The notes under the pieces: model-generated
What the model saw: only the letters and a program-made list of their open reading frames with translations
Databases searched by the model: none
Told to the model about the DNA's origin: nothing
Shown: in pieces, positions 51,284 through 54,200 of the stretch
How the letters are laid out: each line of letters begins with the position of its first letter
Position numbering within the stretch: the first letter of the stretch is position 1
Program-made: the position numbers and the translations under genes
IMG/VR virus record: IMGVR_UViG_3300027730_000040
Span: 1 to 55,004 of that record
Strand: one strand, 5' to 3'
Source: a virus
Taxonomy: Duplodnaviria > Caudoviricetes
Length of the DNA stretch: 55,004 nt

Positions 51284-54200
51284 GCCAAGCGCGCCTACGC
51301 CGCCGAGTCCAAGTGAAGTTGCCAGAGCCCAGACCGGCCAATCAGTTGGCACGGCTGTGGCAAACACGGCCCTTGGCCAAGTCAACCAGGTCGGCCCCGA
51401 TGGCTCGCTGACCTACAGCCAGACCGGCTCGTATGGCTGGACCGATCCGAACAGCGGGCAGTATTACGACCTCCCGCAATACACGGCGACCACGACCCTG
51501 TCGCCGCAAGCGCAGGCGCTGCGTGATGCCAACTATCGCGGTAACCTGACGCTTGCCAATCTTGGTGCGGATCAGGCGCAGCGTGCGGGCGATCTGTTGT
51601 CGCGTCCGATGGACACGGGCAACATCACATCGTGGTCGGATCGCAGTTCGTTGCAGCCGAGCCAGTATGGCGGCGACCTCGAAGGACCGCAGTTCGAGAA
51701 CATCGGAAATCTTCCGCAGTACGATCAAGTCGGCGGTGGCCCGTCTTATGACCGCGTTGGCCAAGGCGGCGGCTATCAGGACGTAGGCGGCTCGCTGCAA
51801 TCCGAGCGGATGGGTGCGGGGCAGGACTATTCGGGCGCTGGAACGATGCGTGGCTACGCTGACGCTGGTTCTGGCGCAAACTATCAAAGCATGGGCGCAG
51901 CGCAGGGCTACAGCGGCGCTGGCACGATGCGCGGATATTCCGATGCTGGCCCCGGCGCGAATTACCAGAGCATGGGCGCGGGGCGTGACTATCAGCTATC
52001 GGCAGATCGTCAGGGCTATTCCGACATCGGCGGCGGGCCGAGCTATGGCCGGACGGGAGAGGGCGGGACTTACGAGCGCATTGGCGGGCAGCGTGGCTAC
52101 AGCGATGTTGGCGGCGGGCCTGCATTTGAACGCATGGGGCAGCAGCAGGGCTATTCTGATATCAGTGCTGGGCCAAGCTATAATCGCGCAAACGCAATTG
52201 CAAACTATGACCGCGTGCGTGACTCTGCGCAGTATGCCGACATTGGGGGTGCGCCAAACTATCAGGGCATCCAGGCTGGCTCTGGTGGATCCTACACAGA
52301 CATCGGCGCTGGTCCGTCCTACGCGCGTCAAAGCGGCAATGCTGGCCTCCAGACTGGCTACGATGTCGGGGATTCGAGACGCTACGAGGATGCCCTCATG
52401 GCGAGGCTCAATCCTGAGCTTGATCGCCAGCGCAACCTGCTTGAGACCAACCTTGCCAACCGTGGCATTCGGGAGGGTACGGGCCGCGACCGCGCGCTCG
52501 ACGAGAACAGCCGGATGGCCAACGATGCGCGCATCGCGGCTATCCTGAACGCAGGGCAGGAGCAGTCACGCATTACCGGGCTCAACCGCGATGCAGCAGC
52601 GTTTGGAAACTCCGCGCGTCAGCAGACCTTCGACAATGCGAACAACCAGCTTGGCTTCAACAACCAGCTTGCTGGGCAGGAACGTGCGGACCAGTTCAGC
52701 GCGGCACAGTTCAACAACCAGAATGTGGGCTTGAGAGCGGGCGAGGCGCGTGATGTCGCCAGCTTCAACAACCAGATTGCCTCGCAGGGATTGCAGGACC
52801 GCACCCAGATTGCCGGGTTCAACAACCAGAACAGTGCGCGTCGGATTTCTGATGCTCTTGCCACGACTGGCTTCAACAATCAGGCGGCTAGTGCAGACAG
52901 GGCGGATCAACTCAACGTCCTAGGCATGAACAACCAACTGATGGGGCAGGAGCGAGCAGATCAGGTCTCGACAGCCCAGTTCAACAATCAGCTATCCAGT
53001 CAGCGGAATGCTGATCAAGCTGCTCGTCTTGCCATGAACAACCAGTACGCAGGGCAGGAATACGCTAATCAGCTATCTGCGGCAGACTTCAACAACCAGA
53101 ACGCTGCTCGCGCAAATGCGGATCAGCTTGCAGCAGCCGGGTTCAACAATCAGGCGATGGGCGCGCAGGACGCAGCCCAACTTGCGCGTCTGAGCATGAA
53201 CAATCAGGCGCTTGGACTGGAGCGAGCCGATCAGGTTTCGACGGCAGACTTCAACAACCGCAACCGTGCAATGTCCAACTCTGAAGCTCTGGCAGCGGCA
53301 GGTTTTTACAATCAGGCTGCTGGCCAGCAGAACGCCGATCAGTTCCAGCGCGCCAGTTACAACAACCAACTTGCGAGCCAGACCGCAGCCGAACAAATGG
53401 CGCGCACGGAATTGGCCAACCAAAATGCTGCTCGCAGTAACGCAGACCAGCTTGCTGCGGTTGGCTTCAACAACAATACGATTCAGGCAAGCAACGCTGA
53501 CCAGTTCCAGCGTGGCAGCTACAATAACCAGTTGGCCAGCCAGATGGCGGCAGAACAACTAGCGCGCACCGACTTCAATAATCAGAACGCAATGCGTGGC
53601 AATGCCGATCAGCTTGCTGCTGTCGGTTTCAACAACAATGTCATCGGACAGCGGAACGCCGACCAGTTTCAGCGGACGGCCTACAACAACCAGCAGAACG
53701 CAGCGGCTCGTGCTGACCAGTTTGCGTCTGCGGACTTCGCCAACCAGAACCGTGCGCGGTCGATTGCGGATATCCTGGCGTCGGCAGGCTTCAACAATCA
53801 GGCGAGCGCGGCAGAGTGGGCCAATCAGGTTCAGCGCACGGGGATGAACAACGACCTTCGCAGTCAGGACTTGGCCAACAGGACCAACGCTGCGGGGTTC
53901 AACAACGCCAACCGCTCGCAGACCTACGCGAACCAGCAGGGCGAACGTGCTCGCAACGACACCCTTGCCAACAACCGCTATGCGCAGATCACGAACATGC
54001 TCGATGCGCAGGACCGTCAGCGCGGTGCTCAACTTCAGGAGCAGATGGCACTTCGCAACCAGCCGCTCAACGAGATTGCGGCGCTGCTCTCAGGCTCTCA
54101 GGTTCAGACGCCAAACTTTGCCATCTCGCAGCCTGACCGGATGCAGACGACCGACATCGCGGGCATCACGCAGCAGGGCTTCCAGAACCAGCAGGCGAAC

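Follow-up and report, generated by a model that had tools for sequence, protein, structure and literature searches.

The window analysed here is the whole 55,004-nucleotide stretch of IMG/VR record IMGVR_UViG_3300027730_000040, the DNA of a virus of the Caudoviricetes. Close to its right end lies a gene for a virion structural protein, termed here the array protein, in which two unlike tandem repeat arrays stand on either side of a conserved core: an N-terminal array (N array) of nine-residue units and a C-terminal array (C array) of eighteen-residue units. Across a very large family of homologues these two arrays lengthen and shorten together, at about one N unit per C unit, and their units correspond in mirror order along the chain. 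The array protein is probably a rod-forming part of the podophage genome-delivery apparatus, built as a hairpin in which an extended strand packs on a long helix.

A preliminary description of this DNA, made from its letters and open reading frames (ORFs), had recognised 24 nine-residue and 25 eighteen-residue units around a core of about 90 residues at 51669..53951, which corresponds to amino acids (aa) 132–892 of the 1011-aa protein. This count holds, with one N unit of 11 residues. Read in a frame that ends in Y, the N array comprises 22 in-register nine-residue units from aa 132, one 11-residue unit and one further 9-mer. Y or F occupies the last place in 23 of the 24 units, and G is found at position 4 in 18 of them. 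The C array is gapless, with F, M, Y or L at position 1 and N at position 3 in all 25 units and A at position 11 in 20 of 25. The stretch between the arrays (about aa 350–442) consists of a linker of ~15 residues and the conserved core, in which G397 is invariant. Tandem Repeats Finder sees only a higher-order repeat with a period of 162 nucleotides (nt) in the C array.

A search with a profile built from 30 homologues yields 48,615 proteins at E≤0.001, roughly 12,000 at E≤1e-10 and 3,588 at E≤1e-30, counted as representatives at 50% identity. A word-index search with the N-terminal domain (N domain) alone had returned only 8 proteins, and the exhaustive profile search was used instead; a scan of genome contigs with the window protein found no relative. 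Every member that was read shares one plan, namely the N domain, a short-period array rich in G, P and Q, the core, an array with a period of ~18 residues, a conserved C-terminal block (C block) and a hydrophobic segment. Most relatives also carry a Peptidase_S74 domain (PF13884), with its Ser...Lys motif, at the C-terminal end.

Array lengths were compared in the best 150 of the 48,615 hits, in hits found earlier and in ORFs taken from 82 loci; with 80 loci chosen as the best of 440, this set is not a random sample of the family. Three hidden Markov model (HMM) anchors, for the N domain, the core and the C block, were placed on these sequences; 253 had any anchor, 240 had all three, and 235 of the latter were unique. 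The distance from N domain to core (LN) serves as the measure of the N array and that from core to C block (LC) as the measure of the C array. The window protein (P0001) has all three anchors in order, at aa 1–115, 365–445 and 912–966.

LN and LC are tightly correlated across the 235 unique homologues (Spearman 0.92, Pearson 0.907). By Theil-Sen regression, LN grows by 0.556 aa for each aa of LC (confidence interval 0.547–0.560), or 10 residues per 18. LC is moreover quantised, since (LC-34) mod 18 equals 0 in 156 of 235 proteins; the other common remainders (11, 15, 7 and 4) correspond to the insert sizes classically accommodated by coiled coils. The number of unit pairs ranges from none in array-less forms like that of Brucella phage Tb (LN=2, LC=-23), through 4–8 in most relatives, to 25 in the window protein, which is the longest of the set (LN 249, LC 466; offset-corrected 247/489 = 0.51). 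Nineteen sequences lie at least 15 aa off the regression line, and P0001 is among them because its N units have nine residues. On a finer scale, in the sister pair L006/L082 the helix differs by 7 residues and the strand by 3.

The coupling is also seen between closest relatives. A FastTree phylogeny of 236 leaves, built on the conserved blocks only, contains 78 cherries, of which 19 are unchanged and 56 differ by |dLC|≥7. The N array shifts in the same direction as the C array in 55 of these 56 (binomial p=1.6e-15), with a median ratio of 0.53 (interquartile range 0.50–0.58) and 44 of the 56 ratios between 0.4 and 0.7. Unpaired intermediates are rare in the sample. Because both arrays are measured from the core, an artefact of this shared boundary was considered and rejected, as misplacement of the core would give anti-correlation. 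The near 1:1 count of the two repeat types that had been predicted for homologues is thus borne out, and the opposite expectation, that the counts are uncorrelated, fails in view of the sister pairs and the rank correlation. The two arms expand together.

Within the window protein, unit types correspond in mirror order, with C unit n matching N unit 26-n. All of the type pairs proposed earlier are present at the given places in the unit lists: C14/17/20 with N12/9/6, C15/18 with N11/8, C16/19 with N10/7, C2/7/12 with N24/19/14, and C5/22 with N21/4. Three units that had been omitted, N3, N17 and N22, are also GPSY-like, and their partners C23, C9 and C4 are not clear GxERADQ units. A three-unit duplication occurs in both arrays in opposite order, such that N6–12 mirrors C14–20.

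This matching exceeds chance. In a Mantel test of the within-array similarity matrices, n<->26-n gives r=0.394, the best of 43 registers (next 0.288), and this value was reached in 0 of 20,000 permutations. That the three-unit duplication is the only mirror signal can be rejected: once N6–12 and C14–20 are removed, the same register still ranks first of 35 (r=0.337, p=0.0038), and N13–24 with C2–13 alone give r=0.496 (p=0.0022). Among 51 relatives with at least 10 C units, mirror mapping exceeds parallel mapping in 39 (mean r 0.30 vs 0.16) and reaches p<0.05 in 33. On the strength of the permutation test and of these relatives, the type matching is not chance and is a property of the whole family.

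Individual insertions and deletions (indels) point the same way. P0022 and P0026, which are identical at 742/758 positions, differ by exactly +61 aa and +108 aa. Between P0026 and P0231 (885/899 identical), one difference of 10 aa stops 3 residues short of the core and one of 18 aa begins where the core ends, so that both changes adjoin the hairpin tip. Compared with L083, its closest relative (73% identity), the window protein shows a difference of 3+3 units and a separate one of 1+1 units, both at mirror positions within ±1 unit. The one-unit change falls at C7|C8 and N18|N19, exactly n<->26-n, with a placement ambiguity of ±1 unit in both arrays. The three-unit change consists in the absence from L083 of three units of N6–12 and three of C14–20. 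Third-codon identity between the duplicates is 37% and 33%, as against 63–78% in the orthologous parts of window and L083, by which a recent duplication in the window lineage is rejected. The duplicates predate the split, and it is therefore the L083 lineage that lost 3+3 units.

When seven clean indel events are combined by Fisher's method, the antiparallel register has p=7e-4 and the parallel register p=0.95. A noisier single-gap placement at tree distances ≤0.7 gives r=0.51 (p=0.018, n=21), with 14 of 21 placements nearer the antiparallel register. That the arrays run antiparallel is thus supported by indels at mirror positions, by the mirror similarity in relatives and by the contacts of the model described next.

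Packing and antiparallel contacts were modelled by structure prediction. The AlphaFold2 (AF2) monomer of the homologue P0033, from a 140-row alignment, has a mean predicted local distance difference test score (pLDDT) of 77.7. In it the N domain is followed by an N array without regular secondary structure; the core is a helix-turn-helix, the C array is spanned by a long helix, and the S74 domain closes the chain. The long helix is broken at 309–317 with low confidence, which is interpreted as an artefact of the monomer. The window protein (77 rows, pLDDT 63.1) gives a similar outline: N domain at pLDDT 80–94 (H12–34, E38–75, H77–109), N array again without regular structure, core helices H365–395 and H402 onward, and helices over aa 402–938 with four short breaks.

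A complex of three copies of P0033 aa 190–432 with three copies of its N array (aa 116–189) was then modelled. It scores an ipSAE of 0.62 (runs 0.61–0.63), compared to 0.00 for all three controls; in the calibration of the method, whose counts apply only roughly to a custom alignment and an unusual set of chains such as these, 58 of 80 solved complexes attained this ipSAE mark, as did 2 of 110 mismatched pairs. At least 94% of contacts are common to the runs, and partner pLDDT is at least 79. The 25 best contacts are antiparallel, with n = -0.540 h (slope -0.540 ± 0.010, r=-0.996), the same 10:18 ratio as in the comparative data. Each strand contacts two helix copies and lies in a groove of the three-helix bundle, which is solid. 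The inter-array contacts anticipated earlier are therefore predicted for the homologue complex and not for the window monomer. The proposal of a DNA conduit is not supported, as the model that passes its controls is a three-helix rod without a lumen.

Beyond the S74 domain, solved structures offer no match to the family. A profile search of the PDB matched this domain only, which in relatives aligns with the ICA domain of MYRF (7dc3, three chains), 6f45 and 3gud. Foldseek of the P0033 model against the PDB gave nothing at E≤0.001, and VIA-align of the homologue model against 48,161 chains gave only generic helical hairpins at Z≤8.4. The P0033 N domain (aa 1–110: helix, long beta-arms, helix) yields HU/IHF-like Foldseek rows that are not significant (E 0.3–1, probability ≤0.77).

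Table 1. Features of the array gene and its surroundings in the window (positions in nt of the window)
Feature	Position	Strand	Evidence or remark
Array gene, 1011 aa, TTG start	51276..54311	+	PHROG 6121 'virion structural protein', E=5.3e-68
Conserved N-terminal domain, aa 1–115: helix, two beta-hairpins, helix	51276..51620	+	HMM anchor
N array, aa 132–349: 24 G/Y-rich 9-aa units (one of 11); proposed extended outer strand	51669..52322	+	
N units 6–12: old 3-unit (27-aa) duplication, 2.3 copies	51804..51992	+	56/81 nt, 21/27 aa identical
Conserved core, aa 365–442: helix, turn, start of long helix; proposed hairpin tip	52368..52601	+	HMM anchor, AF2
C array, aa 443–892: 25 gapless 18-aa units, predicted alpha-helix; proposed inner coiled coil	52602..53951	+	
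C units 14–20: old 3-unit (54-aa) duplication, 2.3 copies; mirror partner of N6–12	53304..53681	+	106/162 nt, 39/54 aa identical
Conserved C block, aa 912–966	54009..54173	+	HMM anchor; invariant N932, L937, P946
G/A-rich hydrophobic segment, aa 983–1000	54222..54275	+	In relatives directly before S74 self-cleavage motif
Acyl-CoA N-acyltransferase-like gene (IVPA position)	50858..51283	+	phrog_4470, E=9e-33; synteny
Nozzle-position gene	49275..50858	+	phrog_5107; synteny
SU10-type adaptor	48577..49278	+	PF24175, 31 bits vs cut-off 27
Tyrosine-recombinase-like ORFs, two	54380.. and 287..1402		In ~7.4-kb cassette
DNA methyltransferase	1365..3182		In ~7.4-kb cassette
Helicase-like ORF	3187..5781		In ~7.4-kb cassette

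The array gene closes a podophage structural module that runs from terminase through portal, major head protein, adaptor, nozzle and acyltransferase (Table 1). The same order is found in Brucella phage Tb and Rhizobium phage RHph_Y25 and is kept in most of 69 IMG/VR loci. In the two named phages the homologues of the array protein have 328 and 339 aa; large proteins come next, one of which bears the annotation peptidoglycan hydrolase in Tb, and fibre genes after these. PMC10386132 describes tubeA, tubeB and an 'IVPA homolog' as one co-descending block with internal virion protein genes to its right. This gene order places the array gene at the position of T7 gene 14. Among the neighbouring genes of the 69 loci, judged by eye from a table, none was seen whose length tracks the arrays. 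Elsewhere, the window contains a 1598-aa ORF (8352..13148), preceded by a 546-aa ORF, that has no PHROG match at E≤0.001. From its place in the gene order it would be expected to encode a large internal virion or ejection protein; its counterparts in Tb and RHph_Y25 have 500–750 aa.

L083 has an S74 domain, and the window protein does not. Synteny between the two runs to window position 54273 and resumes at 6713. On the assumption of a circular record, a stretch of about 7.4 kb (54274–55004 plus 1–6712) stands in place of the S74 domain and of the spacer that leads up to the following virion gene (6711..8351), and this cassette now separates the array gene from the next virion genes. No S74 remnant is found, as tblastn of the S74 tail of L083 matches only the 30 residues before the domain, and the window protein has no Pfam match at E≤0.01, S74 and needle families included. 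It ends 11 residues past the hydrophobic segment, close to the end expected of L083 after self-cleavage. Since many relatives also lack the S74 domain and have tails of 31–49 aa, the truncated form may well work. The phages with the longest arrays (window 55.0 kb, L083 57.8 kb) exceed most relatives' contigs of 36–51 kb in size; window and L083 are one lineage, and this is therefore no evidence for a link between rod length and capsid size.

In the mechanism that we propose, the C array would form a single, very long alpha-helix that repeats every 18 residues (five turns) and most likely joins two others to form a three-stranded coiled coil. The core would be the hairpin tip, from which the N array would run back antiparallel as a strand, extended and lodged in the groove that two helices form, with one 9–10-residue strand unit for each 18-residue helix unit of ~2.7 nm. 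An alpha-helix rises ~1.5 Å per residue, or ~27 Å over 18 residues. Nine or ten residues over this distance amount to 2.7–3.0 Å per residue and therefore to an extended strand, and the strand-on-helix geometry of the preliminary description fits. In addition, the conserved positions of the C unit (1–4 and 11–14 of 18) face all sides of the helix, which would suit a helix buried by neighbours and strands, and its many N and Q residues would provide bonds to the backbone of the strand. The N domain and the hydrophobic C-terminal segment would then lie at the same end of the rod, its base.

Rod length would be set by the number of unit pairs, each adding 2.7 nm. The window arrays would span ~67 nm, and ~80 nm would be reached if the helix from 402 to 938 were straight throughout. 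Each strand unit would have a specific helix partner. Because an indel in one array would shift all pairs beyond it, it would be tolerated only with a mirror change in the other, and such specific pairing would therefore leave a coupled, mirror-ordered history. In function, the rod may be an axial plug or a penetration rod, held to the tail by the N domain, with a hydrophobic C-terminus that would insert into the host envelope. This C-terminus would be freed by S74 self-cleavage in relatives and is encoded directly in the window protein.

Several observations weigh against this reading. The anchored set, as said, was selected and not random. Ten outlier proteins were inspected, and in several of them modules of unrelated sequence have been inserted or part of the N domain occurs twice. 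One of the 56 cherries (P0163/P0149) changes with opposite sign, and 12 have ratios outside 0.4–0.7; between P0021 and P0030, the N region differs by 66 aa with an unchanged C array, a mismatch that is due to an inserted module. Such modules of ~45 residues (NPDV...HY...EGR type) occur in one to several copies at the junction of N domain and N array in P0021, P0030, P0059, P0068, P0019 and L060, and their copy number varies without change in the C array. As to orientation, P0027/P0023, one of the seven clean events, is nearer the parallel register, P0010/P0007 fits neither, and 7 of the 21 single-gap placements are nearer the parallel one; extending the tree distance to ≤1.3 gives r=0.35 (p=0.067, n=28). 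Mirror mapping is not favoured in 12 of the 51 relatives and is not significant in 18. In the AF2 monomer of the window protein the N array (aa 136–365) stays unplaced at pLDDT <50, and no confident inter-array packing is obtained; this model gives no support for packing. The complex model is that of a 7-unit homologue split into two chains, with the 3+3 stoichiometry imposed and with a custom alignment. Finally, the window protein is without an S74 domain, for which reason we infer the trimer from its relatives.

The same rod could instead sit outside the head as a tail needle or central fibre, closing off the nozzle and protruding from the tail in the manner of P22 gp26 or SU10 gp18, and would then not be packed in the head and ejected; this is a real possibility, if not one that we favour. 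S74/ICA domains are otherwise known from external fibres, spikes and appendages. The three PDB matches of the relatives fit that setting, NCBI names relatives as a 'tail fiber domain-containing protein', and a rod of ~70–80 nm would fit more easily outside than inside the capsid of a 55-kb genome. Moreover, the adaptor of the window is of SU10 type, and in SU10, according to PMC9509320, a three-chain coiled-coil needle with a length of 260 Å is the product of the gene that follows that of the nozzle, and the ejection proteins come next. Against a needle, an IVPA-like acyltransferase gene lies between the nozzle and array genes, as gp13 precedes gp14 in T7. The internal virion protein genes of the PhiGT1 lineage lie to the right of tubeB and IVPA in PMC10386132, and no Pfam family, needle families included, is matched at E≤0.01, though no needle sequence was compared directly. 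The term 'ejection protein' used in the preliminary description thus fits the gene order, while a needle placed outside the head remains its rival. A receptor-binding tail fibre is far less credible. The NCBI name, the S74 domain of relatives and the fibrous build would favour one, whereas the protein is without a distal receptor-binding domain: both chain ends would lie at one end of the rod, and its tip would be the conserved core. Tail fibres vary at their tip, whereas the ends of the array protein stay conserved from host to host; the fibres have genes of their own (window 14070..15686; Tb gp28/gp29); and the array-less forms would leave almost no fibre.

Strand-helix hairpins might also assemble, as a hexamer or larger ring, into a hollow tube of tunable length through which DNA passes, extending the helical-hairpin channel of the gp14 type; we consider this unlikely. 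The array gene stands at the gp14 position, the T7 gp14 chains 7ey7_A and 8e4g_a rank 5 and 8 of 48,161 on the core hairpin, and a gp14 equivalent is reported to form a hexameric hairpin channel. A strand that touches two helices is also to be expected in a wall of helices and strands. However, those structural matches have Z values below 8 (7.7 and 7.6), within the noise stated for helices, and the S74/ICA domains of relatives match chains deposited as three copies. Conservation all round the helix would suit a buried helix over a one-layer wall, and six helices with six strands would enclose a lumen that we estimate to be near or below the width of DNA. A last alternative holds that the arrays do not touch and that each is matched to a third component, such as the tail channel, an internal core or a layer of the host envelope. 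Length coupling alone would also follow from a shared external ruler. This is nevertheless very improbable, since the paired indels fall at mirror positions and not just anywhere in the arrays, the histories of the unit types mirror each other, the lengths of neighbouring genes, judged by eye in 69 loci, do not track the arrays, and the model puts strand on helix where controls score 0.00.

Some likenesses to known systems bear on the strand-on-helix rod. T7 gp14 (internal virion protein B, a part of the outer-membrane ejectosome, with an equivalent in phiKMV-like phages) shares with it the gene position after the nozzle and a small IVPA-type gene and before large internal proteins. At 196 aa it is similar in size to the array-less relatives (264–354 aa, including any S74 tail), and the hydrophobic segment of the array protein would suit a membrane. 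The core helical hairpin superposes weakly on the two gp14 chains (96 residues aligned at a root-mean-square deviation of 3.8, and 113 at 4.1), which is common for helices. There is no sequence similarity (hhalign probability 0.1%, which also counts against the tube), and gp14, unlike the array-protein family, is without repeat arrays, S74 domain or strand arm. It is reported to be present in 8 copies in the virion and to form a hexamer, not a trimer, after ejection.

The needles P22 gp26 and SU10 gp18 are trimeric coiled-coil rods on the tail axis, a build that the array protein would share, and their genes lie next to that of the nozzle. P22 gp26 has been described as containing a 'trimer of hairpins' of the kind seen in class I fusion proteins. 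The length of needles is fixed at ~24–26 nm, whereas rods of the array protein would range from near zero to ~70 nm; the outer layer of needles consists of helices, whereas that of the array protein would be an extended repeat strand, with both chain ends at one rod end. The SU10 needle is thought to meet the outer membrane first (PMC9509320). Tape-measure proteins and other protein rulers would share with the array protein a physical length that is set by the number of tandem repeats and falls into quantised classes. A tape measure is one array read against another structure, whereas the array protein has two unlike arrays in one chain that would measure each other and that change together in mirror order. 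The Peptidase_S74 proteins (endosialidase, T5 pb1, GA-1 neck appendage, MYRF) have in common with most relatives, and not with the window protein, the S74 domain itself; their stalks are unlike the part before this domain in relatives of the array protein.

Class I viral fusion proteins in their post-fusion form offer an analogy only. They are known for an inner three-helix coiled coil, an antiparallel outer layer in its grooves and a hydrophobic peptide beside the inner helix that is freed at a chain end by proteolysis. The array protein would share the coiled coil and the outer layer, and its G/A-rich peptide would be freed, in relatives, by S74 self-cleavage. It differs in that the inner helix is C-terminal, with reversed polarity, and in that its arms consist of repeats in variable number. 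A more speculative and rather doubtful extension is that the array protein is the phage counterpart of a class I fusion protein, acting as a zipper-like winch, with mirror coupling as the signature of matching arms. In an open form, in which the rod would be stored or released, the trimeric coiled coil would be extended, the freed G/A-rich C-termini would enter the host membrane and the N domains would stay on the tail. The N-array strands would then close into the grooves one unit after another like a zipper, drawing the tail and the membrane towards each other, with a stroke set by the unit pairs at ~2.7 nm each, or 0 to ~70 nm across the family.

Both coiled-coil rods and trimers of hairpins have precedents. 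Literature searches found no description of the arrays of this family or of their coupling, and the relatives carry database names such as 'hypothetical', 'virion structural protein' and 'tail fiber domain-containing protein'. To our knowledge, a rod of two co-varying, mirror-ordered arrays with a strand as outer layer is new. Also new as an evolutionary pattern is the concerted change of two unlike tandem arrays within a single chain, which proceeds one unit per unit and in mirror order and is seen in no fewer than 55 independent sister pairs. It indicates a simple and modular route to protein rods of any length, assembled from strand-plus-helix pairs, and the motif could serve as a template for designed rods and rulers. 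The family is very large, with its 3,588 clusters at the stricter threshold, and is found in podophages and prophages of many bacteria, with prophage relatives in Sinorhizobium and Sulfitobacter among them. It provides a natural allelic series of 0 to ~27 unit pairs, which makes testable what sets the distance that a short-tailed phage must bridge to deliver its DNA.

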